From: Klebsiella phage KpLz-2_45
Length of the DNA stretch: 64,000 nucleotides
Sequence record: MN871446.1
Strand: one strand, 5' to 3'
Position numbers and translations under genes: made by a program. Positions 4,357-57,785 of this stretch are shown piece after piece (position 1 is the first letter of the stretch; every line of letters begins with the position of its first letter). The notes beneath the pieces were generated by a model that was not told where the DNA came from, did not search any database, and saw nothing but the letters and a program-made list of their open reading frames with translations.

Positions 4357-4429
4357 ATAAATTGATAAACCCGTACAAAGCGATTACAACTATGTTCAAT
4401 AGGGTAATATATGTCCTATTTCTTTTCCA

Positions 4430-4475
4430 ACAAAACAAAATAAAAAAGACGGAGCGGGAAAACCCCGCTCCGTTG
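4430..4475 (-). terminator. intrinsic terminator downstream of the tubulin-like gene
   Basis: Perfect 11-bp stem GACGGAGCGGG/CCCGCTCCGTC with GAAAA loop. On the minus strand it is followed by TTTTTTATTTTGTTTTG. Confidence 0.8.
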
Positions 4476-4521: not shown

Positions 4522-5490
4522 CTAGAGTTCCATCCCGTCGCCCTGAACATCGCCACGGATAAAGTTCTGCGCAGCCTTGGACTTCTTATCGCGTGCAGCG
4601 CGACGTTGTTCGTAGTCGTCAAACGTTTGGCGAAGTTCCATTAAGATCTCATTCAGTCCATCTGTATGAATGACAAAATAAAGCGAATCTTCCCCTGTAC
4701 GTTTACGGGTACCGAACGTGTTATAGTCCGCTGGGATAGTACCGGCTACCGGCTTGTTGTCGCCGTAGAGTTCCGCAACTGAAATAGGTGCGTTAACGCT
4801 CACTGCATCATCACGGTCCTGGAAGACGTCAAGGAGACCGAGCTCCGGGCTTACGCCTGCACCAAGAACGGGTTTCGCCCAGGTCAGTACGTCCGCAGAA
4901 TCCAGTCCATGATGTTTCCCGGAATAAAGATCCAGAACGGCGCGGATGGTAGCGATCATGATCGCATCGACTTCGGCGTTGCGCAGGTTGTTCTCATTGC
5001 TCTCGTAACAGACGTTACAGAACTGATTGTTCTTGATCGCAATGTTACGCAGCGACGAAATAGTCTTCATGGTGTTTTCGGTGGTATTACCCGATTCTGT
5101 CGAACCGACTAAAAAGACCAGCACCGCTTTATTCTGCGCATAAAGCGCTTCGATCAGTTTCGGACCAATGACCGAACCGCTGCCGCCGGAGGCGGAGAAG
5201 ATCAGAATGTTGAGATCGGACGGCTTCAACTTAAAGAGAATGTCGCTGATGCTTCGGTTCGTGACGTCGTAGTTGGTTTTACGGATTTTCCCTGCGCCGT
5301 CTACGCCCTCGAGGAAATACCATTTGTCAGGGTCTTGAACAGACCGCTCGGAAACGTTGGAACGACTACCGTCAACATACGCTTCTTTGACGTTAGCAAG
5401 TTCAGAAAGATCGGTGCGCATGAGTTTAGTGAGGATGTCGATACCCGCACCACCTGCGCCGTAAATAGTTACTGTGTTATTCGATGACAT
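4522..5490 (-). CDS. tubulin/FtsZ-fold GTPase (PhuZ/TubZ-like phage tubulin)
   Basis: N-terminal glycine box TIYGAGGAGIDIL (compare FtsZ GVGGGGNNAV). T4-loop signature ILIFSASGGSGSVIGPKLIE (compare tubulin GGGTGSG, FtsZ GGGTGTG). 322 aa, within the size range of phage PhuZ proteins. Monocistronic, with its own terminator. Confidence 0.65.
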   Translation of the reverse strand: MSSNNTVTIYGAGGAGIDILTKLMRTDLSELANVKEAYVDGSRSNVSERSVQDPDKWYFLEGVDGAGKIRKTNYDVTNRSISDILFKLKPSDLNILIFSASGGSGSVIGPKLIEALYAQNKAVLVFLVGSTESGNTTENTMKTISSLRNIAIKNNQFCNVCYESNENNLRNAEVDAIMIATIRAVLDLYSGKHHGLDSADVLTWAKPVLGAGVSPELGLLDVFQDRDDAVSVNAPISVAELYGDNKPVAGTIPADYNTFGTRKRTGEDSLYFVIHTDGLNEILMELRQTFDDYEQRRAARDKKSKAAQNFIRGDVQGDGMEL

Positions 5491-12148: not shown

Positions 12149-12556
12149 TCAACTTTTGTACAACGCGATTACCTTCAAAATCTCACTGACCATCGAATCG
12201 GGAAGTTTGAAATCGTTCCGTTCCATTTGTTCCTTAAAGAGACGAATCTCTTTCAATGACCGATCCACTCGTAAACCGAAACGATCTCCTAACCAGAACA
12301 ACATCGGGTTTTTCATAAAACGTTTCAGTAGGCGTTGCTCGGGTTCCGTCAGTTCGTCAAACGTCCGTAAGACTTTAATGCGTAAGAGCAGCGGACGGCG
12401 TTTCGGGGATTCTAAGTAACGAGAGAGACGTTCAAAGAGTTCATTGTCAGAAATCTCTGGATTTTTCTCAGAAGGGATTAACCGATCGATATAGTCATCA
12501 CTGAATCCAAAAGAGCGAAGGAAACGTTCCGCAACGTCATAGTGGCGAATGGCCAT
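12149..12556 (-). CDS. hypothetical protein
   Basis: 135-aa ORF. Leader TACTAACTAGAGGAG is upstream of the ATG. Confidence 0.5.
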   Translation of the reverse strand: MAIRHYDVAERFLRSFGFSDDYIDRLIPSEKNPEISDNELFERLSRYLESPKRRPLLLRIKVLRTFDELTEPEQRLLKRFMKNPMLFWLGDRFGLRVDRSLKEIRLFKEQMERNDFKLPDSMVSEILKVIALYKS

Positions 12557-12612
12557 GGTAATACTCCTCTAGTTAGTACATTCAATAACGTGATATAGTT
12601 TTTAATTCAATT

Positions 12613-12649
12613 TGAAACAAAAAAAAAGAAAGGGGCGAACCCCTCTCTT
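12613..12649 (-). terminator. intrinsic terminator
   Basis: Imperfect stem AGAAAGGGG/CCCCTCTCT (9 of 10 bp). On the minus strand it is followed by TTTTTTTTT. Confidence 0.65.
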
Positions 12650-12650
12650 T

Positions 12651-13016
12651 TCAGCTGATCGGAACGATCTCGAGAAACCGTTTACTGACAGTAATACGGC
12701 TCCGTTTTCGTTTCGCCAACGCACGTTCCAGCACCGCCCGCAGTTTGATTGCTTGTAGCCGGGTTAAGTCCCAGACAATCTCTTTGCGCGTGACACATTT
12801 CCAGAACCCCCAGTAAGCGCCCGTGGAGATACGGATGATATTGTTCTCAGAAGCGATGAGACGCTCTCTCAGCGTCGGTAATTCCAACGTCAGTAAATGA
12901 CCAGGGGTTTTGATAGAGTCGGTTAGCTTGTCATTCAGCGCGTTATAGAGCGCTTTCATTTCACGGGGCTCGATAACCATATCTCGATACCCGTAAACTT
13001 GAATCTCAACGGCCAT
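12651..13016 (-). CDS. hypothetical protein, tandem paralogue A
   Basis: 121 aa. C-terminal W..TR.QA..L...LE.A.LAKR.RS.R..VS is shared with the adjacent ORF. Confidence 0.55.
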   Translation of the reverse strand: MAVEIQVYGYRDMVIEPREMKALYNALNDKLTDSIKTPGHLLTLELPTLRERLIASENNIIRISTGAYWGFWKCVTRKEIVWDLTRLQAIKLRAVLERALAKRKRSRITVSKRFLEIVPIS

Positions 13017-13371
13017 TTTTATTTACCGCCATCAGCTGAATTTGAGAAAAACGCACTTGGTTAAAAGACATCACCAGTCGATCAGATTGACGTTTCGCTA
13101 AGAAAGCTTCGCAACGTAACATCAAACGAAACGCCTGACTGCGAGTTAGCTTCCAGTAGTGACGATTGCCTAACCAGATCTGAAGAAGACCGTCGTCAAT
13201 ATCGATGACACGGACCAGAATATCTTCGCCCTGATTTTCTTCAAGGTCAGCGGCGATAGTCGCCCGGAGCTTTTTGGCGTAGTGACGACTAAGAACCATC
13301 TTAGGGACAATAGTATTTTCTTTTTCTTTCGCTGAGTCCCATTGTTTGGCAACGTTCTGAGTAAAGTTCAT
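13006..13371 (-). CDS. hypothetical protein, tandem paralogue B
   Basis: 121 aa. WKLTRSQAFRLMLRCEAFLAKRQSDRLVMS aligns with paralogue A. Preceded by the conserved leader AACTAAACCAATAAGGAATTCAAAATG. Confidence 0.55.
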   Translation of the reverse strand: MNFTQNVAKQWDSAKEKENTIVPKMVLSRHYAKKLRATIAADLEENQGEDILVRVIDIDDGLLQIWLGNRHYWKLTRSQAFRLMLRCEAFLAKRQSDRLVMSFNQVRFSQIQLMAVNKNGR

Positions 13372-13439
13372 TTTGAATTCCTTATTGGTTTAGTTAGCAT
13401 AGTCCTTCGGTCAAACGACCGAAGGAAGTGTAAATAGGA

Positions 13440-13870: not shown

Positions 13871-14191
13871 TTAGGAAATGTTTTTAACTAACCGTTTGAA
13901 GACGCCCGCATCGATAGTGAAGCAAACGATGCTCGCGGGTTCGACGTAATGATTGGTCAGCGTGAAGATGTAGTCGTCGTAGGTTTGCAGTATCTTCAAT
14001 GCCGCCTCGTAGACGCTATGGTCTGCTTTACGAACTAATACAACGGTGTTGTACGAATCCCCGGGCAGGAGAAGGCGATCGCCCAGCGCGTTGGCGTCAT
14101 CGTGGGAAAAGATCAGCTCGATACTGCGGACGTCGTTTGATTCGATATCGTTCTCGAGAAAGACCACGGAGTTCATTTTTGAAAAGCGCAT
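13871..14191 (-). CDS. hypothetical protein
   Basis: 106-aa ORF. Leader CAACCAATAGAGG is upstream. Confidence 0.5.
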   Translation of the reverse strand: MRFSKMNSVVFLENDIESNDVRSIELIFSHDDANALGDRLLLPGDSYNTVVLVRKADHSVYEAALKILQTYDDYIFTLTNHYVEPASIVCFTIDAGVFKRLVKNIS

Positions 14192-14200
14192 GTTTAACCT

Positions 14201-14878
14201 CTATTGGTTGAAAACGGAAATGAAGCGACTTACAACGCGAATACGACCTTTACCCGGACCACGTTTAATTGGGCTCGACAGCGTGAGACGATATGCTTTT
14301 ATTACATCGCCATCAAAATCTACAAAGCCAGGGGCGCTAGGTCCTTTATTTGCATAAAGACCAATGACCGGACTACCAGAAATACCATAACCATTACTTG
14401 GCTCCGTAGAAAACATAGAGTGGTTGGTGGTTTGCTCCGAAAGTCGGAGTAATGCTGCGACATCTTTATCGTTGATTGTGTCAGCGTCTTCAAAAACAAC
14501 GACTTTAGAATTATCGGGTGTGCCGTAGATATCTACCTGAGGAGTATCTTCGAGACGAACTACTTCAAACGGTTCTTCTGAAAGCGTAATAATTTCTTTC
14601 AATCCATCAATGATCGAAGACGCCGCAATAAGGGTTAACTCTTCCCCAGATGGTGTTGAATCACGAATAGAACCTCGCGTTGTTGATACAGAAATTAGCA
14701 TCCTTCTCACTGCGCTATTCATTATAAACACTTCGGTTAACGGTAGGTTGTAGAACACCTCTGCGCGCTGAATCAACTGGTAAGCAATTTCAATCCGGGA
14801 AATTTCCGTGTCCTTTACAGTGTCAAACCATGCCAGAATATCTTTAGCCGTTTCTACGGTTGTTTTTAAGTCAGTCAT
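14201..14878 (-). CDS. hypothetical protein
   Basis: 225-aa ORF. First gene of the leftward block after the divergent junction. Contains an isolated DFDGD pentapeptide (see noticed_but_rejected). Confidence 0.5.
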   Translation of the reverse strand: MTDLKTTVETAKDILAWFDTVKDTEISRIEIAYQLIQRAEVFYNLPLTEVFIMNSAVRRMLISVSTTRGSIRDSTPSGEELTLIAASSIIDGLKEIITLSEEPFEVVRLEDTPQVDIYGTPDNSKVVVFEDADTINDKDVAALLRLSEQTTNHSMFSTEPSNGYGISGSPVIGLYANKGPSAPGFVDFDGDVIKAYRLTLSSPIKRGPGKGRIRVVSRFISVFNQ

Positions 14879-14985
14879 TTTCTTTTCCTCTAAGCTTAGT
14901 TATTCAGAAAGGTCTTTCCTTTCCTTCTTCACCTTGGCTATATATACATCAAAAAAACTGCATTTCATTCTCTTAGAAAGTTTTT
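14879..14985. promoter_or_regulatory. conserved divergent intergenic cassette, copy A
   Basis: Minus-gene leader variant AACTAAGCTTAGAGG sits next to the ATG at 14878. A pyrimidine tract TTTCCTTTCC follows. Then comes the box CACCTTGGCTATATATACATCAAAAAAACTGCATTTC (14930-14966), which ends about 20 nt upstream of the plus-strand ATG at 14986. The box is nearly identical to copy B. Confidence 0.5.
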
Positions 14986-16272
14986 ATGTTACCCATTCTA
15001 ATTTTGAAGGACACTGTTGTGGAAATCAAAAACCTTTTTGACGATCGTTTTAAGAACGTCGTTTACGATAGTCGCTTTGCCAGGGATGTCGCTGTTTTCA
15101 CGAAGACCTTCGAAAACAAAGGCGAACATGCAAACTTCTTTGGTAGCGGTCTACTCGGCACCGTCAGGATTCGTTGGACAAACACCGAAACCAACGGGTT
15201 CTTTGATGACATTTTAAAAATCGACCCCGATGACCTGAAAGCTGACATCGACGAACTGGATTGCATCGATCCAAGTCATATCGTGACTACGGACGCCTTT
15301 AACTTGATGATCGTCTACTGCGTCCATCGTGCGATGACCAGTGGTAAACTCTCAGCGGTACAACGAAAAGAAACCGCGATTAACCTGTTAAGAATTCTCC
15401 ACTTTAAATTCATCTGCGGGATCATCACCCGTTACTTCCCGCATGGAACAGACGTACAGATCGCACTGCGGACGTATGAGGCCATGACTAACCGCTTCGA
15501 CCTCAAGATCTACAAGACTTGGGGCAAACTCATTACGGCCCGCGCACAGTCAATTATTGAGCCTCACGGCATCCACGCGAAAACGATCCAGACCTTCACT
15601 GACGACGACGCTGTCAAGTACATGCTCTCGGATATCCAGACCCGTATTCGAACCGTGATCAAAACGTTAACGGCGCTCTATTACCAGGTCAGAGAAAACG
15701 ATGGTCGAGTTATCTCGGTCTCCAGTATGGTTGAGGTCGAGGGTAACCTCGAGCTGCGAGACGTTAAACGTGCCTTCCCGAAATACCGGCGTTACCTCTT
15801 TGAACAAATGACTGACCCGGCTAGTTTTATACGTTTGGAGTTAGTGGATATTCTGACAAAGAATGCCCCTTCGCAGAAAAAAGCGTTAATTGCCACGTTG
15901 CAATATACCAGCTTGCATGTCATTAACCCGGAAACGTTATTTAACACCAACCGTGGGAAAGAAGTTAAGCAGAGTAAAGAAACGCGTCAATTGGTTGAGT
16001 TTACGGAAAGAACGCTCGAATATACTTTCGACTTTATTCACGGTAAGGGAATCAACCCACGCAACCTCGTCGAGTTAATCGGCAGCATCAAAGCGGTATT
16101 GAACGCCTCCCGTAACAAAGAACCGGAGGTCATGTACCTCAGAACCGAAGGCGATAAGATTGTGCGTGCAGCCACCGGTAAACGCGAACCTACGCCAGTC
16201 TCTGCGGAACGAACATCGTTTATTCTGTATTTGATTCTGCGTACCCTGACAATGAACTACTACCAAAATTAA
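14986..16272 (+). CDS. hypothetical protein
   Basis: 428-aa ORF with no SD before the ATG. An alternative GTG start at 15019 has an AAGGA SD. Followed by a bidirectional terminator. Confidence 0.55.
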   Translation: MLPILILKDTVVEIKNLFDDRFKNVVYDSRFARDVAVFTKTFENKGEHANFFGSGLLGTVRIRWTNTETNGFFDDILKIDPDDLKADIDELDCIDPSHIVTTDAFNLMIVYCVHRAMTSGKLSAVQRKETAINLLRILHFKFICGIITRYFPHGTDVQIALRTYEAMTNRFDLKIYKTWGKLITARAQSIIEPHGIHAKTIQTFTDDDAVKYMLSDIQTRIRTVIKTLTALYYQVRENDGRVISVSSMVEVEGNLELRDVKRAFPKYRRYLFEQMTDPASFIRLELVDILTKNAPSQKKALIATLQYTSLHVINPETLFNTNRGKEVKQSKETRQLVEFTERTLEYTFDFIHGKGINPRNLVELIGSIKAVLNASRNKEPEVMYLRTEGDKIVRAATGKREPTPVSAERTSFILYLILRTLTMNYYQN

Positions 16273-16316: not shown

Positions 16317-17363
16317 TTATAACCCGATTTGTTTCGCCAGTCGGCAATAACCACGATAGAATGCGTCGATCAGAAGATTCTCCAGAAGCGGAATGGAAGC
16401 GATACTCTGTCCAAAGACGTTGTAGTTCCAGGTGACGTGTTTGCGTACCGCACAGGTGTTCTCGGGTCGTGGGCCTTTCACCATATAGGCAATATCACCT
16501 ACGCTGGAAGTTAACACCCAACGCCCCTGATCTTCCCGGTATTCGACGTCCGTGATAAAGCGATCGGTTTTAAACTCTTCTTCGCTCAACGGTGAACCGA
16601 TGATATCTTCCACTGCTTTTCGCATGTAAGAATCAATCAGCGGGATTTTCTCGACGTTTCCGTCGATATGGTAACCAAACCCCTTACCGAGTATTGACCC
16701 TACGTAGAAGCCTTCACAGGTGTCTTTATCGTTGGATCGATTAATCAGCTTTAGAACAAGGTCGGTTGTGCTGTCAAAGAACAGGGCAACGTTCGGGAGA
16801 AACTGGTATTCACCGCGGCGTTGACAAACCACTTTGTGCGCCCAGCTTAATTCGAAGTGTTCCCGCATGTACAGGATAAAATCTTCACCCAGTTGTTTCT
16901 GCCAGGTACGGCCGTAAAAGTCACCGGTCCACGTACTCTTGTCGTCGGCCATGGTTCCGACTGCGATCGGGCGACCATTCATCAACAACGTCCGCTGCAT
17001 GACATGAATTTTAAAACGACAGTTGAGCATAAACCGTGCTCGCGCTTTCTGACCAATAAACCCTTGGAAAGCGTGTTGGATCGCCAGGAAACTAAACGGG
17101 CTTTTCGTTTCCTGAGTGAAATGATACCGCGTAGTATCGCCGCCTTCGGTAACGAAGACAAGGTGTTTCATTTCTAAGGTAGGGTTAGTGCTAAACCGTA
17201 AAACAATATTGTCGTCCTTGTCCGTAAAGATAAATCCGTTTTCGTTACGATAACCAAAAAGACGATCTTTTTTACTGATCTCCAAAACCCCTTCGTAGTG
17301 AAAATCAGTCCCTGTTTTCTTATCGTAAACGGTACTGTAAACAAACGTTTCTATCGTTGCCAT
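16317..17363 (-). CDS. hypothetical protein
   Basis: 348-aa ORF immediately downstream of the terminase. RBS AAAAGGAG is upstream. Confidence 0.55.
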   Translation of the reverse strand: MATIETFVYSTVYDKKTGTDFHYEGVLEISKKDRLFGYRNENGFIFTDKDDNIVLRFSTNPTLEMKHLVFVTEGGDTTRYHFTQETKSPFSFLAIQHAFQGFIGQKARARFMLNCRFKIHVMQRTLLMNGRPIAVGTMADDKSTWTGDFYGRTWQKQLGEDFILYMREHFELSWAHKVVCQRRGEYQFLPNVALFFDSTTDLVLKLINRSNDKDTCEGFYVGSILGKGFGYHIDGNVEKIPLIDSYMRKAVEDIIGSPLSEEEFKTDRFITDVEYREDQGRWVLTSSVGDIAYMVKGPRPENTCAVRKHVTWNYNVFGQSIASIPLLENLLIDAFYRGYCRLAKQIGL

Positions 17364-17421: not shown

Positions 17422-17465
17422 GTTGCGTATTTCAATAGAGTGATATATTCGTCTATTGTTTTCGA

Positions 17466-19658
17466 TTACCTATAGAAATTCGTCCCCATGTATTTTTGGA
17501 AGTCAGCGTGACGATTAGCGTTCATCTCCTCGATCTTACCTGCCACGTTAATCGGCTCTGCACCCGCCTCTTGTAAACACTCGTTAAGGTAATTGAGACG
17601 TCGTTCAAGCTTCATACTGATAATTGGATTATCGGCATTTTCGATGGCTGACAATGTCTTTTCAATTTCACGGTGGAGGAAATCAATCTCTTCCTGCTGC
17701 TCGTCAATTTCCTGCGCATTCCCTGCCAACGCATCTACTGCCCCCGTCAATACCCTTCTGGAATCTAACCCGTAATAGTCTAAGTTCGACCCGTACAATA
17801 ACAGATAGACGGTCAGAAGGTAGGCGATAACGGTATCGTCATGTCCACCCGGTGGATGGTCAATTCTTCCGTTCTTCTCGACCAACCCGGTCAATTCCGC
17901 AATGAGAATTTTATCATGAAGTCGTGTAGCCCCTTTCTGCATGGCGATCTTCAAAACGGTTTCGTAAAGCTGACGTCGGGTGGTGGTTCCCGTGCAGAAA
18001 CCAAACTTCGTTTTACGACGAATATAGAATGCGTCATCACGACGGTTCATGTCACCCTGCAGCTCAAGGAACGCCGCGGTGTCCACTGACTTATTATCGA
18101 CAATTAAGTTAAAGATTCGTTTGAACGGATCAATTCCCTTGCTGTGCAATATCAGACAGAGGTAATCAATAAACGTTTGTCCGGTGGATTTACGTTCTGG
18201 GATGAAGACAGCCTTAGGATAAGAAATTAACAGATCACCTAAGAACTCAGCGTATTTAGGAATCAGTGCTTCGTTGATTACTGAAATCCCGATAACGTCC
18301 GCAGTATAAGGATCAAGGAACACCAACGACAGCGCATCTCGTCCACCGCCTTCTGAGGTATCGGCCCCAATGACAAAGGTCATTGTCTTACGATTTGCAT
18401 CCAGATATTCTTTGGAGACATACCAGTGGACAATGTAACCGTTCCTGAAGATTTCGGAATAATCGGAATAACGCTGTGAGGCAATGGCTTTCGCTAACAA
18501 CTCTTTATCAATTGGGTTGTTCGTCCCTGCTGCGGTCCAGATGTTAAAGAAGTCACGGTCTGCTTCTGGACCACGTGCCATAGCACGACGCATGTTCTCG
18601 TAATGCTGTTCGTCAGAGACCCCAACCTGGTTGTGACTCCACGTTCCGTTGATTAAGAGTTTCGCATCAGAGGATTTCAGATTGCGCTGAACGATCTCAC
18701 GAAGTTCTTCTTGACTCCCTGCGTCGTAAAAGTGCTCAGACCACCGAGCAGCTTCGTTCCACATTTTGAAAACAAAGCGACCATCACGAGACGTTTGGTC
18801 ACCCGCGGTAGTGGTCATGATACTGCCCCAGGGCATGTTTCTCGCTTTCGCTTTTTGAATCGCGGCGTTCATACCGGGCATTGCTGCTTTAAACGCAATT
18901 TCGATATAGTTGATGAAGGGGGTTTCATCCCAGCCTACCGTAGGCGAGGTGTTACCACGGCCAACTTTATTCGCACCACCTGGGTCAGAACGAGATACTG
19001 CTACCGCAAACAAGTTACCACGGGTGTTATAGGTCACCTTCTCGTTAGCAATCGTGTCTGAACGGTCTGTTACTGTCAGATAAGGTGGTAAGTATTCACG
19101 GATACGACGTATCATCGTGGTTGTTTCAGAACGTAATTCGTCTGATTTGGTCACGAGTGAGATACGGGCCTTTGTATATCGCATATACAGCAGCCAGGAG
19201 TAAAGACAATAAGAGATAAGTGACTTACCAGTCTGACGGGGTTGTATCAACAGGTAATCGATATGGTTCATGTACGACCAGATCAAAGACATGTTCGCGC
19301 GGTTTGCTCTTAAAAGATCACCTTCTTCACCGACAACCGGCGGAACGCGAAGACACTCTCTGAGATAATACCAGATGTTATATTCCGCTTCGATCTTAAT
19401 TGCGATCATCTGTTCTTCAGTCAGATCGGGACTGAAAGGATCGACACCGACAAGGTCCGGGTTTAAAAGTGCAATCGGCCAGTGGTGGTTTTTAATTCCC
19501 ATGTTTTGTAAGACACCGACAAAACGTAGGAATTCTTTGTTTGGTGTATCCCAATCCGGGATAGCAGAGGGATGATAATCCCAATCGCTAAGGTGGAGAA
19601 TAGGACGCGAATCATTCTCTAGAATAATGGAGGAGGTCATAGAGTTTCCCTCTGACAA
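17466..19658 (-). CDS. terminase large subunit
   Basis: 730 aa. Walker-A-like LIQPRQTGKSL in the N-terminal ATPase half. Nuclease-half acidic motifs VIGADTSEGGGRDALSLVFLD and GRIDHPPGGHDDTVIAYLL match the terminase RNase-H-like nuclease pattern. Confidence 0.75.
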   Translation of the reverse strand: MSEGNSMTSSIILENDSRPILHLSDWDYHPSAIPDWDTPNKEFLRFVGVLQNMGIKNHHWPIALLNPDLVGVDPFSPDLTEEQMIAIKIEAEYNIWYYLRECLRVPPVVGEEGDLLRANRANMSLIWSYMNHIDYLLIQPRQTGKSLISYCLYSWLLYMRYTKARISLVTKSDELRSETTTMIRRIREYLPPYLTVTDRSDTIANEKVTYNTRGNLFAVAVSRSDPGGANKVGRGNTSPTVGWDETPFINYIEIAFKAAMPGMNAAIQKAKARNMPWGSIMTTTAGDQTSRDGRFVFKMWNEAARWSEHFYDAGSQEELREIVQRNLKSSDAKLLINGTWSHNQVGVSDEQHYENMRRAMARGPEADRDFFNIWTAAGTNNPIDKELLAKAIASQRYSDYSEIFRNGYIVHWYVSKEYLDANRKTMTFVIGADTSEGGGRDALSLVFLDPYTADVIGISVINEALIPKYAEFLGDLLISYPKAVFIPERKSTGQTFIDYLCLILHSKGIDPFKRIFNLIVDNKSVDTAAFLELQGDMNRRDDAFYIRRKTKFGFCTGTTTRRQLYETVLKIAMQKGATRLHDKILIAELTGLVEKNGRIDHPPGGHDDTVIAYLLTVYLLLYGSNLDYYGLDSRRVLTGAVDALAGNAQEIDEQQEEIDFLHREIEKTLSAIENADNPIISMKLERRLNYLNECLQEAGAEPINVAGKIEEMNANRHADFQKYMGTNFYR

Positions 19659-34996: not shown

Positions 34997-35284
34997 TTAA
35001 GCGGTTACCGCTGCGTCAGAGACGTCGGTCTCGCCTGCGTCAGTCGCAGTCTCGCCGTCAGTGGCAGGAGAAATGACGGTTTTGAGGTTGTTGTAGCTAT
35101 CGTGAATATAGCTGAAGATAACCAAGACCGCAAAAGCGTAGGCCGCCACTTCCATGGCAGTAGCCATGCAGAACGCGGCGAAGATTGCCAGCGCGGCAAC
35201 GATCAGGGTGTCGGTGATGAAAGCAAAGATTGCTTTGGTTTTCTCAGTGAAAGAGAAAGAGAAGAACGCTTTGATTTTTTCCAT
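34997..35284 (-). CDS. small membrane protein
   Basis: Two TM helices and an acidic C-tail (TDGETATDAGETDVSDAAVTA). Confidence 0.5.
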   Translation of the reverse strand: MEKIKAFFSFSFTEKTKAIFAFITDTLIVAALAIFAAFCMATAMEVAAYAFAVLVIFSYIHDSYNNLKTVISPATDGETATDAGETDVSDAAVTA

Positions 35285-35364
35285 GATAATTTACCTTTTG
35301 AATTGAATATTTTAACTACGGGTGAGAGTGCACTACTCACGCTGTTGAGAGGCAGCGCTTACTA

Positions 35365-35484
35365 CTATTTGACCGCTTTTAAGTAACTCCCTACGGCGAC
35401 GGCGAAAACACAGGCCGGGAGTAAAGCCAAGTCAAGAATAAGTACCGAGGAAATAATTCCCAGTACCGCGAAAGACGTTTTCAT
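35365..35484 (-). CDS. tiny membrane protein (39 aa)
   Basis: Not in the track. MKTSFAVLGIISSVLILDLALLPACVFAVAVGSYLKAVK. Its ATG overlaps the TAA of the upstream micro-gene by 1 nt. Confidence 0.35.
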   Translation of the reverse strand: MKTSFAVLGIISSVLILDLALLPACVFAVAVGSYLKAVK

Positions 35485-35654
35485 TACAACGCCTCCGGTG
35501 AATGGGTTGCGTTGAAATTGGCTTTGTTAGTTTGCTCTTCTAAAAACGCTCCGGCGGCCCCTGCTATGAAAGCTACCAGAAGTGTTGGGATGATAGTCAG
35601 TTCAAAGAAGGTGCAGATCAGCAGGGTGAGAATTAATGCGATGAAGTAAGTCAT
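35484..35654 (-). CDS. tiny membrane protein (56 aa)
   Basis: Not in the track. MTYFIALILTLLICTFFELTIIPTLLVAFIAGAAGAFLEEQTNKANFNATHSPEAL. Confidence 0.4.
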   Translation of the reverse strand: MTYFIALILTLLICTFFELTIIPTLLVAFIAGAAGAFLEEQTNKANFNATHSPEAL

Positions 35655-35669
35655 GATGATTTCTCCTTC

Positions 35670-35828
35670 TTAGGGTAAATAGGTAACGGTGACTAACAGA
35701 GCGAACGGTGAAACGATATACCAGACGAGCACAGAGACGAATCCGTAAAGGATGGCCATCGGTAACGAGACGCCGAAACAAAGCAACGCAATGAGCGTGA
35801 CAATTAATAAAAGTATACTTTCTTTCAT
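35670..35828 (-). CDS. tiny membrane protein (52 aa)
   Basis: Not in the track. MKESILLLIVTLIALLCFGVSLPMAILYGFVSVLVWYIVSPFALLVTVTYLP. Preceded by the conserved leader AACTAAACCAATAAGAGG. Confidence 0.4.
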   Translation of the reverse strand: MKESILLLIVTLIALLCFGVSLPMAILYGFVSVLVWYIVSPFALLVTVTYLP

Positions 35829-35939
35829 TTTACTTTACCTCTTATTGGTTTAGTTATTTGGAAAAGACTTTTTCCTTTCCTATTTCACCTTAGCAATATA
35901 TACATCAAAAAAACTGCATTTCGATTTATTGAAGTTTTT
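35829..35939. promoter_or_regulatory. conserved divergent intergenic cassette, copy B
   Basis: Leader CTTATTGGTTTAGTTA (35841-35856). Pyrimidine tract TTTTTCCTTTCC. Box CACCTTAGCAATATATACATCAAAAAAACTGCATTTC (35886-35922), about 95% identical to copy A. Confidence 0.5.
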
Positions 35940-36509
35940 ATGAAACATCTACCTCGGGGATTGAATACGATGAAGAAAATTACGCTTTGGGGACATCCTG
36001 TTCCGTTATTGGGCTTCTTACACTGGTTGAGTTTTTTATTGATCTACTTCGCAGCGTTGATCATTTGCGTCATTATCACACCGTTTTTACCGGCGTTTGC
36101 GACGAAAGACGGGAAACTACCGAAATGGCTGAAATGGTTCGACACACCGGACAATAGTTTAGACGGGGATTCCGGTTGGAAAGAGAAACACTCTCTCTGG
36201 GTAAAGGTACTCCCTGATTGGGCGCAAACTTACGTCGCCCGTGTCTTTTGGCTATACCGCAACCCGTTGTACGGTTTTTCTATTAGCGTGTTAGGTGCAC
36301 CAAAAGACAAATTCCGTCAACCTGTTTTAGAGGGTAAAGGGTTTGATGTTAAAGGCACCTATAAGTCCCATTACTGGATGGTCTACTTCATGCGTGACGA
36401 TCACGTGAAGAAGCGCCGGTTTAAGGTTTACATTGGGTGGAAACTGAAAGCAGAAGGATTTGAGAAATACCAGTTTGCATTTCTGATCAACCCGTTCCAA
36501 ACGCCGTAA
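35940..36509 (+). CDS. membrane-anchored protein (N-terminal TM, Trp/Lys-rich ectodomain)
   Basis: 189-aa ORF. An internal ATG at 35970 (MKKITLWG..) has a better SD (GGGGA). Followed by a bidirectional terminator. Confidence 0.55.
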   Translation: MKHLPRGLNTMKKITLWGHPVPLLGFLHWLSFLLIYFAALIICVIITPFLPAFATKDGKLPKWLKWFDTPDNSLDGDSGWKEKHSLWVKVLPDWAQTYVARVFWLYRNPLYGFSISVLGAPKDKFRQPVLEGKGFDVKGTYKSHYWMVYFMRDDHVKKRRFKVYIGWKLKAEGFEKYQFAFLINPFQTP

Positions 36510-36552
36510 AAGAAACAAAAAAAAAGAGAGGGCAAACGCCCTCTCTTTTTTA
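36510..36552. terminator. bidirectional intrinsic terminator
   Basis: Stem AGAGAGGGC/GCCCTCTCT with AAAC loop, flanked by AAAAAAAAA and TTTTTTAT. Confidence 0.8.
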
Positions 36553-36969
36553 TACGTGTTTTAGCGATTCAATTTCGATTATCGCTTCAATCTCGAAAAA
36601 CATTCGGACAAAGAAAGTAGCGATAGACAGAATACCTAATAAGTACTCATGGTGAACGCAGAGCAGAATGAATAGCACCACAGCCACGATTAAACGCAGC
36701 ATAACGTTCATCCCGCCAGTGAAAGTCAGATGCTTCTCTATTTTTTGGCGAAGTTTACTTTTGTTCTCTGGCGTCAGCGATATTCTTGAGAGGTCAGGGA
36801 AGGAGAAGAACTGGAAACCCAGCCAGAGTAAGCGTATTGTGATCAACGTGATCACCCAGTAAATTACTGCATCCTCTAATAACGGGATTTTCGCAATAAT
36901 AAGAATAGCCAGGGCGAAGCAGGAGAACAAAGAGAGTATTTTGGAAAGTAGGGTCAGCGAGTAAAACAT
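36550..36969 (-). CDS. polytopic membrane protein
   Basis: 139 aa with about four hydrophobic helices. Confidence 0.55.
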   Translation of the reverse strand: MFYSLTLLSKILSLFSCFALAILIIAKIPLLEDAVIYWVITLITIRLLWLGFQFFSFPDLSRISLTPENKSKLRQKIEKHLTFTGGMNVMLRLIVAVVLFILLCVHHEYLLGILSIATFFVRMFFEIEAIIEIESLKHV

Positions 36970-37036
36970 TTTATATCTTCCTTAACGTTAACGTTTTAGA
37001 ACGTCTCCGGTTCTCTGAACCGGAGACAGAGGTAGA

Positions 37037-37531
37037 TTAGTTTTCGCAGGTCAGGACAACTTTGCCCTGGATGTGAGTAGTGCCCAGCGGCATCTCTTGT
37101 GCGTCGAGATTGATTTTCGGCGCGATAGCCAGCGTTTTGTTGTTACCCTGGATCTGCTGATTTTGAGCAGCGGCGGACCACGCGTATTCCTGGTTGTTGA
37201 TGAATACGGAAGTTTGCGAACGATCGCTGATGGTCATGAGGTTATCAGCGAAGGCGAAGCGCCCGGTGTTTTGGGTCAGTTTGGCTTCGGTCAGTTTCCA
37301 GCTCTGGCGAGCGGTGTTACTTTTCAGTACGAAGTTAACCGCCTTTTGATTATCGGTACCTTGCTCGCCTTTCAGAAGGATCCCGCCGGTCTGCTGACCA
37401 TTGGCAAAATCGATCCCACATGACATTTGAGTTTGGGTGTATTCTGCATCCCATACCATTTCCTGCGCAGCGAACGCAGTAGAAGACAGAGACAGTACCA
37501 GAGCAGCCACAGCGAATTTTACGTTTTTCAT
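37037..37531 (-). CDS. secreted protein (Sec signal peptide)
   Basis: MKNVKFAVAALVLSLSSTAFA|AQE. 164 aa, Gln/Asn/Thr-rich, two Cys. Confidence 0.6.
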   Translation of the reverse strand: MKNVKFAVAALVLSLSSTAFAAQEMVWDAEYTQTQMSCGIDFANGQQTGGILLKGEQGTDNQKAVNFVLKSNTARQSWKLTEAKLTQNTGRFAFADNLMTISDRSQTSVFINNQEYAWSAAAQNQQIQGNNKTLAIAPKINLDAQEMPLGTTHIQGKVVLTCEN

Positions 37532-37574
37532 TTGTTTTCCAAAAGAGAGATTGAGTTAAGGTTTTTACTACAAT

Positions 37575-37979
37575 TTACGGATCGACACGCATCGCACGTT
37601 GAGAATCCATTTGCTGATTCTGTTCCATGCGTTCCATTTCCATCTCTAAACGACGGATCTGTAATTCTTTTTGGCGACGACTAAGGTCGGCTAACCGTTC
37701 GCAACTTTCGGCCATCTTATCGTCACCGCCTAAGGGTATACTTATACTAACATACCCACCTTTATCGTTATCTGCATAACGATACTGACTACCATTATTT
37801 CCGTACGCCCCGACGTTAATCGTTGCTTGCGGACGGCTGACCTCACAACTGATATCACCGTTCTGTACGCGGCCACGGTTTTCAGCTGTGTTGTTCATGA
37901 TGTAAGGGGCATCGGCAAAAGCCATTGTTGAACAAGTCAGTGTAATTGTAAAAAGTAAGACTTTATTCAACATGGACAT
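37575..37979 (-). CDS. secreted protein with a C-terminal coiled-coil
   Basis: Signal peptide MSMLNKVLLFTITLTCSTMAFA|DAP. C-terminus LADLSRRQKELQIRRLEMEMERMEQNQQMD is heptad-like. Confidence 0.55.
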   Translation of the reverse strand: MSMLNKVLLFTITLTCSTMAFADAPYIMNNTAENRGRVQNGDISCEVSRPQATINVGAYGNNGSQYRYADNDKGGYVSISIPLGGDDKMAESCERLADLSRRQKELQIRRLEMEMERMEQNQQMDSQRAMRVDP

Positions 37980-38334
37980 TGAAGCACACCTCAGGTTGGA
38001 ACTGCGCGTTGGGTATTACCTGCATCGCGCAGATAGGGACGTATTTCTGTCCGTTATCGTGCTGCTGGATAAATTTGTTATTGATGGTCATCGGAAAGGT
38101 CGCTCTTTCACCACCGAAAACATATTTTTTGTAAGGAATCCCTTTCTTATCTGCAATGACCTTATTCCCGACACGAAACACAAAATCCCCGGATTCTTTC
38201 GTGTCGATGTACATCTCAATTTGAGAATAACCGTCCATGCCAATAGAGTTAGTTTGGTTAACTGGACCGAAGTAGTGAGCAGAGGCATTCGCCGCAAAGA
38301 AGACAATCCCTATTAAAGCAAAGCGTAGTTTCAT
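37963..38334 (-). CDS. secreted protein (Sec signal peptide)
   Basis: MKLRFALIGIVFFAANASA|HYF. Confidence 0.55.
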   Translation of the reverse strand: MKLRFALIGIVFFAANASAHYFGPVNQTNSIGMDGYSQIEMYIDTKESGDFVFRVGNKVIADKKGIPYKKYVFGGERATFPMTINNKFIQQHDNGQKYVPICAMQVIPNAQFQPEVCFNVHVE

Positions 38335-38345
38335 TTTAGTTTCTC

Positions 38346-38765
38346 TTATTTCCGGCGACGTTGATGGTTGTTGTTGAATTTGTTGGCGAGATTATTAAAT
38401 GATTCCTTTGAAATTTTATTTTCTTTCAAAGAGCTGATCTCGACGACATTGCGTTTATCGTTGCAAGGCCATAAAGACTCAATCAATTCTGCGGTGTCGT
38501 CTTTTTCAAGACCACGATAAATCTCTTCTAGTATATAGTAGTCGCAGAAGGCCGCTGCATCTAAAATGAGATTTGACATTTTAGCCCCTTTGAAAGGATA
38601 CAGCTGACTAGCAACTAATTCGCCGTCTAAAATGTAAAGCGCCACCGAAATTTTTGGTGTGGTATAAATAGCTTTGACTTTAATCTCTTTAACGGTATAA
38701 GAACTTTTATTAATAGCTTTTTGTACGTTTTCGATAGTTTTCGCAGTCAGTAACATTAATAGCAC
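38346..38765 (-). CDS. hypothetical protein
   Basis: 139-aa ORF preceded by the leader AACTAAACCTATTGGAG. Confidence 0.5.
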   Translation of the reverse strand: MLLMLLTAKTIENVQKAINKSSYTVKEIKVKAIYTTPKISVALYILDGELVASQLYPFKGAKMSNLILDAAAFCDYYILEEIYRGLEKDDTAELIESLWPCNDKRNVVEISSLKENKISKESFNNLANKFNNNHQRRRK

Positions 38766-38873
38766 TCCAATAGGTTTAGTTATTTTATTTACGGAAAGGT
38801 TTTATCTTTCCTAAATCACTGTAGCTATATAGATGTTAAAAAAATTGGAGATGGGTTCATCTCCAATTGTCTG
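38766..38873. promoter_or_regulatory. conserved intergenic cassette, copy D (no plus-strand gene follows)
   Basis: Leader CCAATAGGTTTAGTTA (38767-38782). Tract TTTATCTTTCC. Box CACTGTAGCTATATAGATGTTAAAAAAATTGGAG (38817-38850). Then a hairpin TTGGAGATG GGTT CATCTCCAA. Lies between two minus-strand genes. Confidence 0.45.
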
Positions 38874-39236
38874 TTATTTCGAATAGCTGTTACGGACGGT
38901 AGTCAGGTATTGTCCGCCATTAGGAAAGTTCCCTTTCCCATCGACGTAATCAAATGTGATTTCATGACTAGGAATAGTCGAAAGAAACCCGCGTTGGTTC
39001 GCCACGATCAGTTGTTTGATGACGTTTTGAATTCGTTTCGTCAACACCGTCAATCGAGCATTACCAGGACAAACGTTAGTGTAAATTTCGTTATAACGTT
39101 TCCCAATCAGTGACAACCTGGCAGGTGCCCGGAAAAGTACGCGTACCCCTTCTTTTTCGTAAATTTCTTTCTCGAGCTCCCACAGACCAAAAGTCTCCAT
39201 GGTATCCGGTTGTACAGGAACATCTTGCTTAGTCAT
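38874..39236 (-). CDS. hypothetical protein
   Basis: 120-aa ORF. Confidence 0.5.
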   Translation of the reverse strand: MTKQDVPVQPDTMETFGLWELEKEIYEKEGVRVLFRAPARLSLIGKRYNEIYTNVCPGNARLTVLTKRIQNVIKQLIVANQRGFLSTIPSHEITFDYVDGKGNFPNGGQYLTTVRNSYSK

Positions 39237-39281
39237 TTTCTTTCCTCTGAAAGTAGGCGGGGATTAGCCCCGCCTACTGTG

Positions 39282-39581
39282 TTAGTCTTTTTCTGACAGA
39301 CCTAATGTAATATCTGCCTTTTCTCGCGCTACAATTTCGCTATGGGTAAGCCCGTGCCCTTTACGTTGATGACCGCACATCCAGCAACTACAGTTACAAG
39401 GTGTGGTCGCTACACGACCGATAATACCTTTATCAGTTTGAGGTTTCAACCCGTTAAAATAGACATTGGTGTTCCAATAGTGAGAAATTTTCTTTTTCTT
39501 CATAGCACGTTTGAAACGGCGAAAAGCGCGGTCACGAATAGCCATCGTTTTAAATCCTCTGAGTTCACCCGTAGAGAACAT
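39282..39581 (-). CDS. small Cys/His-rich protein (possible zinc ribbon)
   Basis: CNCSCWMCGHQRKGHGLTH cluster in a basic 99-aa protein. Confidence 0.45.
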   Translation of the reverse strand: MFSTGELRGFKTMAIRDRAFRRFKRAMKKKKISHYWNTNVYFNGLKPQTDKGIIGRVATTPCNCSCWMCGHQRKGHGLTHSEIVAREKADITLGLSEKD

Positions 39582-41551: not shown

Positions 41552-42260
41552 CTAAGAAAAATTCCATGGCATCACGGTACCGGTGCCAGCATTGCGTATC
41601 ACGGAAATGATAGATTTTATCAAGCTCAGTAATACGGTCAGTGACAAGTTTGTGAAGATGCGCGTAGTAACGCCCTTTCGGAAGAAACTGCGTAAAGAGA
41701 TCTTTTTCCGTGAGCCAAATTTTAAGGAAGGTGACTTCTATCCCTTCAACGTCTTTTAGGTTGTCGAGGATATCTGCCAATTTCACCGCCCACGCGTCAG
41801 GGTTAGCGGAGTTAAGGAGTTTCGTCGCCTCTAACATCGTTCGGTCTTTCCGGTTCGCTTGTATGGTTTTAGTCGTATAGCGATCCGTAACCCAATCAAC
41901 GAGTTTCAGTGTCTCGTCAACCAGTTGAGTGTAATTACCGTCTATGCTATCAAACGTAAACAGCATAAAACGGAGATCCTCTAAAGAGATCTCGGTATCC
42001 TCAACCACGTCATGAAGTAGACCTGCACAGACTACGGTGATAGGGTAGTCATTTTCCTTAAGTGTTTCACTGACGGAAAACGGATGAATGTAATAAGGTT
42101 TGTTAGACCCTTTTCTTTTTTGTCCGGTGGCAGAATGCGTTGACATCGCCACCAAATTACAAACAGAATATAATTTTCGTTCCGCTTCAGTTTTCAATCC
42201 AAAAGCCCTCTGAGTAGATTTCAATAAGGTGATATAGTCTTCAAATAAATTCCACAGCAC
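41493..42260 (-). CDS. HD-domain (p)ppGpp hydrolase, SpoT/Mesh1-like small alarmone hydrolase
   Basis: YYIHPFSV, LLHDVVEDT (compare SpoT ALLHDVIEDT) and VKLADILDNLK (compare SpoT KLADRLHNMR) appear in the correct order and spacing. Confidence 0.8.
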   Translation of the reverse strand: MLWNLFEDYITLLKSTQRAFGLKTEAERKLYSVCNLVAMSTHSATGQKRKGSNKPYYIHPFSVSETLKENDYPITVVCAGLLHDVVEDTEISLEDLRFMLFTFDSIDGNYTQLVDETLKLVDWVTDRYTTKTIQANRKDRTMLEATKLLNSANPDAWAVKLADILDNLKDVEGIEVTFLKIWLTEKDLFTQFLPKGRYYAHLHKLVTDRITELDKIYHFRDTQCWHRYRDAMEFFLDDNNRKEFENAYRINPESC

Positions 42261-50846: not shown

Positions 50847-50948
50847 ACTCCCTCCAAATTATTCATCGTCATCGTCATCGCTGTCGTCGTTGCTTTGACC
50901 CAGTAAAACCAAAACCAGTAAATCGAGTAAATCAGACATTGTTTAATC

Positions 50949-51012
50949 ACCTTATTTTTTGTTAATGATGTTAACTGCAATAGGGTGATATAGTTATCAA
51001 ACTAATTGGAAC
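50949..51012 (+). promoter_or_regulatory. partial copy of the conserved plus-side promoter-like box upstream of the tailspike gene
   Basis: TCACCTTATTTTTTG...GGGTGATATAGTTATCAAACTAATTGG aligns with CAATATATACATGAAAAAAATTGG of copy C. CTATG follows about 30 nt before the ATG. Confidence 0.35.
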
Positions 51013-56945: not shown

Positions 56946-57012
56946 TTGTCTTCTCTCTATAGGTTTAGTTGTATAATTGGCAGGGGAATTCCCCTGCCAG
57001 GTAAGTGTTTGA

Positions 57013-57645
57013 TTAGTTAAAGAACGGCGCCATGTTCGCACTGAATTTAATATCTTCAGCGTGTTTGAATTTGATCGTTGTAACAGTGATCGGTTCGTAG
57101 TTGGCCATGTTAACAATCGACAGCGTTTTATCGAGGTAGATAACGTTGTCACGGATGATCATGTGGTAATGCTCACGTTCCCCGCTTTGTACTTTAGCCA
57201 CTTCGTCAATGAAGATATCCGTTTCCGGATTAAAGCTGAAGTCGCTCGGCATAACTTTCACAGGGTTCTGTTCGCGATAACGCTTAATATTAACGATAAC
57301 TTCTTCTACCCCGTAGACGATAGAAAGAATATCCGTCTCTTCTTCGAAGTCTGCGAGTTCATCAGGAGTAAGAATCGTGCTGTCGAGGTATTCGCGTTTG
57401 TACGGCCAGTTGGCCAGGAATTCTGGCTCGTCGCACATCGTGGAAAACGCCTCTCTATTTTCGCAGTACATCCAAAAACGGTCGCCCGTACTCATACGAG
57501 TCTCCACGATTAAATCTGCCGTTTCCGGGATAGAATTTTCAAAATCGAAGCGCGGCGTGAATGTGGCGAAATTCTCGGAGAGCGTGTCCGGGGTCAAATC
57601 AAAGTTAGCGTCTTTAGCGAAAACAGTAATAGTGAAAGTGGTCAT
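57013..57645 (-). CDS. hypothetical protein
   Basis: 210-aa ORF preceded by the leader AACTAAACCAATAAGGAATATATCATG. Confidence 0.55.
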   Translation of the reverse strand: MTTFTITVFAKDANFDLTPDTLSENFATFTPRFDFENSIPETADLIVETRMSTGDRFWMYCENREAFSTMCDEPEFLANWPYKREYLDSTILTPDELADFEEETDILSIVYGVEEVIVNIKRYREQNPVKVMPSDFSFNPETDIFIDEVAKVQSGEREHYHMIIRDNVIYLDKTLSIVNMANYEPITVTTIKFKHAEDIKFSANMAPFFN

Positions 57646-57785
57646 GATATATTCCTTATTGGTTTAGTTAAAAGTATGATAAAAAGGTTATTCTTTTCCT
57701 TTATCACTCGGGCAATATATACATGAAAAAAATTGGAGATTAATCTTATGACTTTTTCACTGAACATAACCAGGTTGAATACTCT
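57646..57785. promoter_or_regulatory. conserved divergent intergenic cassette, copy C, with a 15-codon uORF
   Basis: Leader CCTTATTGGTTTAGTTA (57654-57670). Tract TTCTTTTCCTTT. Box CACTCGGGCAATATATACATGAAAAAAATTGGAG (57705-57738). The GGAG serves as SD for a tiny ORF, ATG 57748 to TAA 57795, whose end overlaps the glycosyltransferase ATG at 57786. Confidence 0.5.

Follow-up and report, generated by a model that had tools for sequence, protein, structure and literature searches.

Klebsiella phage KpLz-2_45 (sequence record MN871446.1, of which a 64,000-nucleotide stretch, here called the window, was analysed) carries four full copies, A to D, of an intergenic cassette of roughly 100 bp (14879-14985, 35829-35939, 57646-57785 and 38766-38873). 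The cassette is identified here, with a probability of about three in four, as a one-directional leftward promoter of early type joined to a leader module, in a jumbo phage of the chimallivirus type. Read on the minus strand, the first module would be a promoter made up of T.TC.AA at -30, a stretch rich in T at -20, the -10 block TATAT[T/A]GC, taken as a variant of the TATATCAC found genome-wide, and a start-site block [A/G]GTGA[A/T]. The second would be AGGAAAG..CTTTCC, a short hairpin close to where the transcript begins, and the third the leader AACTAAACC, with the preferred Shine-Dalgarno (SD) context AATAAGGA and then the start codon behind it. If phages phiKZ, 201phi2-1, OBP and N1M2 are taken as a guide, the promoter would be read right after DNA injection by a virion-packaged multisubunit RNA polymerase (vRNAP), and the four cassettes would form a paralogous subfamily within about 28 promoters. 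An initial annotation had described the same DNA as a leader, a pyrimidine tract and a rightward box that together make a bidirectional unit; it was right in kind, as the element is phage-specific and not of the sigma70 type, and wrong on the direction, the bidirectionality and the unusual translation initiation that it proposed.

This reading is carried by the observed motif family, its strand, copy number, conservation and gene context. Genome-wide work used the nearest complete genome, recorded as 'Serratia phage KpXa_1' (304 kb, without annotation, host Klebsiella pneumoniae), which was joined from seven pieces and oriented as the window; 353 genes were called in it, 314 of them on the minus strand. 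Over a 6-kb stretch the window is 99.5% identical to KpXa_1, 96.6% to the Klebsiella phage MJ359 and about 78% to the Maaswegvirus phiKp24/FBKp24.

The recurrence of the cassette was borne out, as was the near identity of copies A and B (about 95%, with 2 of 37 positions differing). The 24-nt box pattern GCWATATATACATSAAAAAAAYTG has three exact matches in the window (14937, 35893 and 57712, all on the plus strand) and none in 100 shuffles, even at three mismatches; a degenerate fourth copy, that of D, lies at 38824-38847. A motif search across the whole of KpXa_1, which the initial annotation had already proposed, returned the extended box six times and a wider promoter family of about 28 sites. 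The six boxes are all on the plus strand and within about 80 kb, four of them in the window, and the two copies outside it, E and F, are both degenerate. With blastn, a 117-nt cassette was found in only 11 records, all from this clade and at three places each, while a scan of IMG/VR with cassette-type and canonical patterns gave several copies only in the FBKp24 contig, the other hits being single and attributable to chance.

Unbiased enrichment of intergenic 8-mers in KpXa_1 placed TATATCAC, read on the minus strand, at the top, with 17 of its 22 minus-strand-reading occurrences lying between genes. The consensus of these 17 canonical sites is T.TC.AA...TTT.A.g.C-TATATCAC-t.TAtTGAA, i.e. three blocks and a start-site block. 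A position weight matrix was trained on the 17 sites, with no cassettes among them, and used to scan both strands of the genome. The positions ranked directly after the training sites (18 to 28) were all on the minus strand and all intergenic (11/11 for each), and they included all six boxes. Among all positions on both strands the boxes rank 19-26, and their minus-strand scores are 27.7 (C), 27.5 (F), 27.0 (D), 24.9 (E), 18.8 (B) and 18.1 bits (A); the best real plus-strand site in KpXa_1 reaches 10.4 bits and the best site in five shuffled genomes 16.1 bits. Within the window nine hits exceed 8 bits, all on the minus strand. The boxes score only in the minus-strand reading, so what had been taken for a rightward box is a promoter variant that points leftward, TATAT[T/A]GC-N3-[A/G]GTGA[A/T], seen in reverse complement. 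Plus-strand GCAATATATACATCAAAAAAA is, on the minus strand, TTTTTTTGATG-TATATTGC-TAA-GGTGAA; the plus-strand A7 run becomes the -20 T block, and CACC or CACT the GTGA of the start-site block. The bidirectional promoter that had been built on the box falls with it, as no plus-strand position in the window exceeds 8 bits. The promoters of the four cassettes are as follows.

14927..14964, minus strand: early-type promoter of cassette A, with T7 at 14951-14957, TATATAGC at 14937-14944 and GGTGAA at 14928-14933 (18.1 bits).
35883..35920, minus strand: early-type promoter of cassette B, with T7 at 35907-35913, TATATTGC at 35893-35900 and GGTGAA at 35884-35889 (18.8 bits).
38814..38851, minus strand: early-type promoter of cassette D, with T7 at 38838-38844, TATATAGC at 38824-38831 and AGTGAT at 38815-38820 (27.0 bits).
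57702..57739, minus strand: early-type promoter of cassette C, with T7 at 57726-57732, TATATTGC at 57712-57719 and AGTGAT at 57703-57708 (27.7 bits).

The block structure of the cassettes follows that of the family. At -10, 22 KpXa_1 sites have TATATCAC or TATATTAC, and the cassettes match at six of eight positions (TATAT[T/A]GC), deviating at positions 6-7; the four cassettes with this deviating block still rank 19, 22, 25 and 26 genome-wide. The -20 block is T7 in all cassettes, and C and D also have TCTCCAAT in register at -30. At the start site the window cassettes read GGTGAA or AGTGAT, and GTGA is invariant in the eight sequences formed by the four copies and their four orthologous sites in FBKp24. 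In the alignment of these eight the shared module order that had been claimed is identical throughout, and the invariant columns fall in the T run, TATAT..C, GTGA, AGGAA / CTTT and AACTAA.C, while the flanks and the hairpin loop vary between the window cassettes and the roughly 22% diverged orthologues. The -10 cores of the orthologues are TATATTGC, TATATTGC, TATATAGC and TATATTTC; that of cassette A is conserved as TATATTGC, and the orthologue of cassette B scores 22.3 bits. In the first 200 kb of FBKp24 the matrix gives 22 hits above 14 bits, again all on the minus strand.

The gene context agrees with a leftward function. All of the roughly 28 family members in KpXa_1 are on the minus strand, and in 28 of 28 cases a minus-strand gene begins 32-241 nt downstream. 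Twenty of the 28 lie between co-directional minus-strand genes and only seven at divergent junctions, so lying at a divergent junction is not inherent in the element; where a rightward gene breaks a leftward array, transcription of the array merely has to be started again by another leftward promoter. For the cassettes themselves, the divergent setting claimed by the initial annotation applies to A, B and C, whereas D (38766-38873) lies between two minus-strand genes. At D, E and F the plus strand after the box runs into a terminator hairpin and then the 3' end of a minus-strand gene; with no plus-strand gene there, a rightward promoter would serve no gene. Canonical TATATCAC sites also stand directly upstream of the genes for the beta subunit (PHIKZ071-like) of the phage's non-virion RNA polymerase (nvRNAP), as well as for a chimallin-like shell protein, at KpXa_1 17378 and 30843, both at divergent junctions outside the window. 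The other promoters of the family in the window are listed here.

50975..51012, minus strand: canonical early-type promoter (TATATCAC-cct-ATTGCA), 39.8 bits.
12580..12617, minus strand: canonical early-type promoter (TATATCAC-gtt-ATTGAA), with a terminator T run before it, 42.4 bits.
17430..17467, minus strand: canonical early-type promoter upstream of gene 16317-17363, 35.5 bits; a stable hairpin follows the predicted start (-17 kcal/mol, z -4.6).
42219..42256, minus strand: canonical early-type promoter, 42.4 bits.
4394..4431, minus strand: weaker early-type promoter with the phiKZ-identical core TATATTAC, 16.3 bits.

The first of these had been listed as a tailspike-proximal partial copy of the cassette (50949-51012), and is really a canonical promoter that has neither hairpin nor leader. 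In the 132-nt leader downstream of it lies a 26-codon open reading frame (ORF; about 50857-50937, minus strand), below the length limit of the ORF list, with its own SD (AAGGTGA); its product, MSDLLDLLVLVLLGQSNDDSDDDDDE, is hydrophobic at first and ends in an acidic tail.

The A7/T7 run was also considered as the tail of an intrinsic terminator, and this was rejected for A, B and C, which have no hairpin 5' of T7; a hairpin precedes the T run only at D (38843-38868) and at E and F outside the window. As A, B and C keep T7 without a hairpin, the run is conserved as part of the promoter. At D the A7 run doubles as the T tail of a minus-strand terminator:

38843..38868, minus strand: intrinsic terminator of gene 38874-39236, an 11-bp stem followed by TTTTTAACAT; in promoter D the -30 and -20 blocks overlap with the 3' arm of this stem and with the T tail.

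A recurrent terminator family, e.g. at 36518-36551 (minus strand), occupies many intergenic sites; its stems are almost the same from site to site, AAAGAGAGGG...CCCTCTCTTT, and long T runs come after them. Of the 8-mers enriched between genes, AGAGAGGG and CCCTCTCT rank with the strongest.

Downstream of the promoter, the predicted cassette transcripts can fold a hairpin, AGGAAAG..CTTTCC, near the 5' end, and the pyrimidine tract of the initial annotation is the 3' arm of this hairpin as read on the plus strand. Minimum free energy (MFE) is -11.7 kcal/mol (z -2.7) for B and -9.2 kcal/mol (z -1.6) for D, and the structure is plausible as a prediction from folding. A start-proximal hairpin follows about a third of all 28 promoters. 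The 5' untranslated regions (UTRs) are made up as follows.

14906..14925, minus strand: hairpin AGGAAAGG..CCTTTCT in the 5' UTR of cassette A (MFE -9.0 kcal/mol, z -1.9).
14879..14901, minus strand: leader AACTAAGCT (14893-14901) and SD AGAGGA of cassette A, directly 5' of ATG 14876-14878; the gene behind it is 14201-14878 (minus strand).
35829..35881, minus strand: 5' UTR of cassette B, with hairpin 35860-35881, leader AACTAAACC 35847-35855 and SD AAGAGG, leading to ATG 35826-35828 (minus strand) of a 52-aa ORF.
38766..38812, minus strand: 5' UTR of cassette D, with hairpin 38793-38812, leader AACTAAACC 38773-38781 and SD TGGAG.
57646..57700, minus strand: 5' UTR of cassette C, with a weak hairpin 57681-57700, leader AACTAAACC 57661-57669, SD AAGGA and ATG 57643-57645.
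13387..13395, minus strand: AACTAAACC as leader only, behind a G+C-rich hairpin and TATG, 5' of gene 13006-13371.
56962..56970, minus strand: AACTAAACC as leader only, behind the hairpin GGCAGGGGaattCCCCTGCC.

The leader pattern AACTAAACCWATWRG has five good matches in the window (13381, 35841, 38767, 56956 and 57655), all on the minus strand, and eight matches with up to two mismatches against 0.78 expected. The exact leader AACTAAACC occurs six times in KpXa_1; all six are on the minus strand, with an SD and a start codon just downstream of each. AACTAAAC occurs 11 times in that genome, 7 of them (0.3 expected) in the 40 nt that precede a start codon, and TAACTA and AACTAA are enriched 9.1-fold and 6.7-fold in the zone upstream of start codons, comparable to SD-related hexamers. 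From its sequence context, AACTAAACC may be read as the full form of the ribosome-binding-site context preferred by the phage and not as part of the promoter. The two remaining partial copies of the initial annotation (13372-13400 and 56946-57012) are genuine as leaders and in nothing else, each standing behind an unrelated G+C-rich hairpin. Among the leader variants it had listed, that at 14878 (AACTAAGCT) is convincing, those at 12556 (ACTAACTAGAGGAG) and 11949 (GACTAACC) are loose and that at 14191 does not match.

Stem-loops at the 5' end can stabilise mRNA, and A-rich leaders that enhance translation exist, e.g. the T7 gene 10 leader. The cassette UTR resembles these in having a hairpin that lies within about 10 nt of where the transcript is predicted to begin and a conserved, A-rich segment that adjoins the SD on its 5' side, and differs from them in that it has no sequence identity to the known enhancer leaders, no covariation and no Rfam family; a search of the whole window against Rfam at the gathering score gave no matches.

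The identity of the phage bears on which enzyme would read the promoter. The annotation of FBKp24 includes split RNA polymerase beta/beta' genes, a tubulin and a protein weakly similar to the nuclear shell of 201phi2-1. FBKp24 gp69 matches PHIKZ071 (E 6e-80), gp68 PHIKZ074 (3e-68) and gp82 PHIKZ055 (1e-63), all three being chains in the solved structure of the phiKZ nvRNAP. Meanwhile gp26 (phrog_2962, RNAP beta) gave no match to that structure, and gp328, of 1492 aa, is annotated 'RNA polymerase beta subunit'. Homologues of the RNA polymerase, chimallin-like shell and tubulin genes are present in KpXa_1, 78-94% identical to those of FBKp24, and split polymerases, shell and tubulin together make the phage a phiKZ-like, nucleus-forming jumbo phage of about 300 kb. 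In this group an injected vRNAP transcribes the early genes and the nvRNAP the later ones (PMC7598289, PMC13282480), transcription is independent of the host RNA polymerase, and in phiKZ the early promoters read by the vRNAP drive expression of genes including the nvRNAP subunits (PMC13282480). The suggestion that a phage-encoded polymerase is the reader thus gains in substance: it would most likely be a multisubunit phage enzyme, and the clade encodes homologues of phiKZ nvRNAP subunits and further RNA polymerase-like genes.

The tubulin (PhuZ-like) gene lies in the window at 4522-5490 (minus strand) and is 86% identical to FBKp24 gp94; the weak TATATTAC promoter at 4394-4431 is just downstream of it, and a TATG stands 38 nt upstream of its start. 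Compared with KpXa_1, the window has an insertion or deletion of about 575 bp around 35000-35700, where the offset shifts from 34425 to about 35000, in a block of small ORFs just downstream, in the leftward direction, of cassette B.

Several points weigh against this reading. In copies A and B the TCGAAAT block is 4 nt further upstream than the -30 register, and their scores of about 18 bits are near the shuffled-genome maximum of 16.1. Positions 6-7 of the cassette -10 are never CA in either phage, unlike in the canonical sites, and from the sequences it is not certain that the same enzyme would read both. The ATATAT core is palindromic, and some weak rightward activity would be compatible with the sequence alone. 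Leader hairpins, put forward earlier as candidate RNA-processing or coupling elements, do fold in prediction; compensatory changes are lacking, with 89% of cells paired across the eight sequences, no pair changed on both sides and a result no better than shuffles, and the hairpin of C (-6.1 kcal/mol, z -0.3) is not significant and likewise no better than shuffles. Among the polymerase genes, gp26 and gp328 are candidates, by inference, for subunits of the virion enzyme. The polymerase, the timing and the exact start site, like any role of the hairpin or leader, are proposed by analogy with related phages.

Some of these points are shared with the alternative that survives best, namely that the cassettes are a separate class of leftward promoter and 5' UTR, in which a -10 variant, TATAT[T/A][G/T]C, is coupled to the hairpin and AACTAAACC and defines a four-operon regulon with its own timing (delayed-early or middle) or RNA-level control. 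It is unlikely, albeit worth keeping in mind, and it refines the early-type reading without contradicting it. Positions 6-7 of the -10 vary (TG, AG, TT) and are never CA in the four cassettes of two phages that have diverged by about 22%, whereas 17 of 17 canonical sites have CA; the eight sequences show little or no change in the hairpin arms and in AACTAAAC; the leader of copy B in FBKp24 stays beside the hairpin and not beside the start codon; and the cassette unit is confined to this clade. Yet E and F swap variant and canonical cores between the two phages, so that such variation is tolerated within one class, and a common UTR is explained as well by shared ancestry of four paralogous copies. 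Furthermore, AACTAAACC is also found behind unrelated hairpins with no such promoter, the genome-wide enrichment of AACTAA and TAACTA upstream of SDs gives the leader a wider setting, and the hairpin is without covariation. If a separate class did exist, its operons would have their own timing or translational control, for example through a modified polymerase or a phage RNA-binding or ribosome-associated protein, and a class of non-early promoter would have become visible to bioinformatics in a chimallivirus, a group whose middle promoters have until now eluded prediction.

At junctions A, B and C, the genes that run rightward probably have a promoter of their own. In phiKZ the late promoter is 5'-TATG-3', T(-3)ATG(+1) with +1 at the G, and is read by the nvRNAP (PMC7598289). 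TATG ranks first among the 256 tetramers at -52..-18 upstream of KpXa_1 genes (47 observed, 10.4 expected), peaks at 20-49 nt before start codons and is rarer than expected on either strand of coding DNA (sense strand, 634 against 1018 expected). Many rightward genes carry it 24-47 nt before the start, often after a terminator, and it often precedes tail-fibre, sheath or head genes, including plus-strand and structural genes that have no box. At junctions A, B and C it lies 40-45 nt beyond the box and is conserved in FBKp24:

14985..14988, plus strand: TATG, candidate late promoter core at junction A, 31 nt before GTG 15019, conserved in FBKp24.
35939..35942, plus strand: TATG, candidate late promoter core of gene B, 28 nt before ATG 35970.
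57747..57750, plus strand: TATG, candidate late promoter core of the glycosyltransferase gene (ATG 57786), 36 nt before the start.

Further TATG sites in the window are upstream of 25112, 28177 and 51056 (plus strand) and of 13371 and 19641 (minus strand). Because these statistics match the phiKZ late core, the three junctions probably hold two back-to-back promoters, early leftward and late rightward, with the latter read by the nvRNAP; for the individual sites at A, B and C the assignment is one that we infer.

There is little room left for the initial model, in which ATATATACAT(C/G)AAAAAAA is a rightward promoter in a bidirectional unit, followed by SD-independent initiation. Three of the four copies do lie at divergent junctions with a plus-strand gene 70-75 nt downstream of the box, TATATAC is loosely like the TATATTAC of phiKZ and the ATATAT core reads alike in both directions, but with the genome's own matrix the plus reading stays below 8 bits against 18-28 bits for the minus reading, and at D, E and F the box has no plus-strand gene and runs into a terminator. 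Each plus-strand gene has its own TATG 28-36 nt upstream, as do many genes without a box, and an ordinary SD at its annotated start. The lack of an SD after boxes A and B, from which unusual initiation had been proposed, arose from the choice of start codons: the starts taken, 14986 and 35940, are ATGs inside TATG motifs, and as longest-ORF starts they are probably wrong. The gene after box A starts at GTG 15019 according to the FBKp24 and MJ359 annotation, with the SD GAAGGA at 15006-15011, and that after box B at ATG 35970 with the SD GGGGA, which fits the 540-nt length of FBKp24 gp139. The model is thus very improbable.

Even less likely are host sigma70 promoters, such as TCGAAA-18 nt-TATATT on the minus strand of copy B. 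This is one 9/12 match at cassette B, and a sigma70-like 'promoter' that overlaps the copy D orthologue is marked in the FBKp24 record; however, sigma70-like matches in 35600-39300 number 5 against 6.3 expected from shuffles, at canonical sites TTCAAA and TATATC are about 13 nt apart, which does not agree with a spacer of 16-18 nt, sigma70 promoters have nothing that corresponds to the GTGA block or to the C conserved at -10 position 8, and phiKZ-like phages transcribe without the host RNA polymerase (PMC13282480). The claim of a phage-specific promoter outside the sigma70 type therefore holds, with sigma70 matches at chance level and a match to phiKZ-like early consensuses. The least credible proposal of all is that intergenic DNA was duplicated locally and that the cassette has no function. 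In its favour, only four copies share the extended 100-nt similarity, and they lie within about 45 kb; but all blocks are conserved at orthologous sites in a 22%-diverged phage while flanks and hairpin loop vary, and the core belongs to a 28-member family oriented throughout with the downstream genes.

The early-type reading yields a usable transcription map for a clade of unannotated or mis-annotated Klebsiella jumbo phages that could serve in phage therapy: it covers about 28 early-type promoters that point leftward, nine of them in the window, the TATG signal and two corrected start codons. The cassette subfamily would also offer compact, phage-specific expression modules for testing or engineering. 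In the FBKp24 record MW394391.1 the 'regulatory' promoters (for example 94603-94625, 116957-116964 and 121326-121355) are sigma70-like or AATAAATA-type (T4-late-like) predictions; they miss the phage's own TATATCAC, and only one overlaps a cassette, by coincidence. As that motif is missed, the phage-specific promoters of the clade are effectively unannotated.

The cassette promoter can be compared with several known systems. Sigma70 promoters with UP-like A/T tracts (T4 early) share the AT-rich, -10-like TATATT/TATATC and the T/A-rich upstream region, and differ in the spacing, which is about 13 nt here, and in the conserved positions outside the hexamers. The hairpin promoters of N4-type virion RNA polymerases, which the stem-loops had suggested, were dropped as a model, since the hairpin here is downstream of a linear three-block motif that phiKZ-like phages also have and the polymerases are multisubunit. 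The TATG elements resemble phiKZ late promoters in lying 28-36 nt upstream of plus-strand starts, mainly before large structural genes; here the core is 4 nt with weak T-rich flanks and single sites are indistinguishable from chance, and phiKZ-type late promoters usually escape bioinformatic prediction according to the literature.

The closest likeness is to the early promoters of phiKZ-like phages. In phiKZ these number 28-32, their -10 is extended and a block rich in T lies upstream of -19 (PMC8244752), and their consensus is TATATTAC (PMC7058600); those of 201phi2-1 are conserved at -10, -20 and -30 (PMC11512511). Predicted early consensuses have been published for 201phi2-1, OBP, EL and the Klebsiella aerogenes phage N1M2 (PMC7058600, PMC8244752, PMC11512511), among them ...TTTRARR_BTATATTACDWHDGTG for 201phi2-1, ...TTTYARRYAKATATTATYWWADTG for OBP and TBYAWWWWWTTTCARRYAKATATTATYWAAGTGWA for N1M2, the last with the core TTTCARRYAKATATTATYWAAGTGWA and 31 sites (PMC7058600). 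A full-text literature search for the 8-mers TATATTAC and TATATCAC found unrelated papers only. Cassette B (TTTGATGTATATATTGCTAAGGTGAA) matches the N1M2 core at 20 of 26 positions. Shared features are blocks at about -30, -20 (T-rich) and -10 (TATAT[T/C]A[C/T]), a start-site [A/G][G/T]TG, a copy number of about 30 in each genome, split multisubunit RNA polymerases, a frequent position directly after a terminator and co-orientation with operons of small genes of unknown function, as well as with the nvRNAP and shell genes. In contrast, the canonical core here is TATATCAC and not TATATTAC or KATATTAT, and the cassettes differ further by TATAT[T/A]GC and by a shared transcribed leader of about 50 nt, which is undescribed in other phages. 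The element is thus an early-type promoter of the expected kind, in a phage group where it was previously undescribed. The GTG at its start site parallels the AAGTGWA of N1M2 and the DGTG of 201phi2-1, and together these likenesses suggest that the early architecture (-30, -20, -10, GTG) and the TATG core are shared by Pseudomonas and enterobacterial chimalliviruses.

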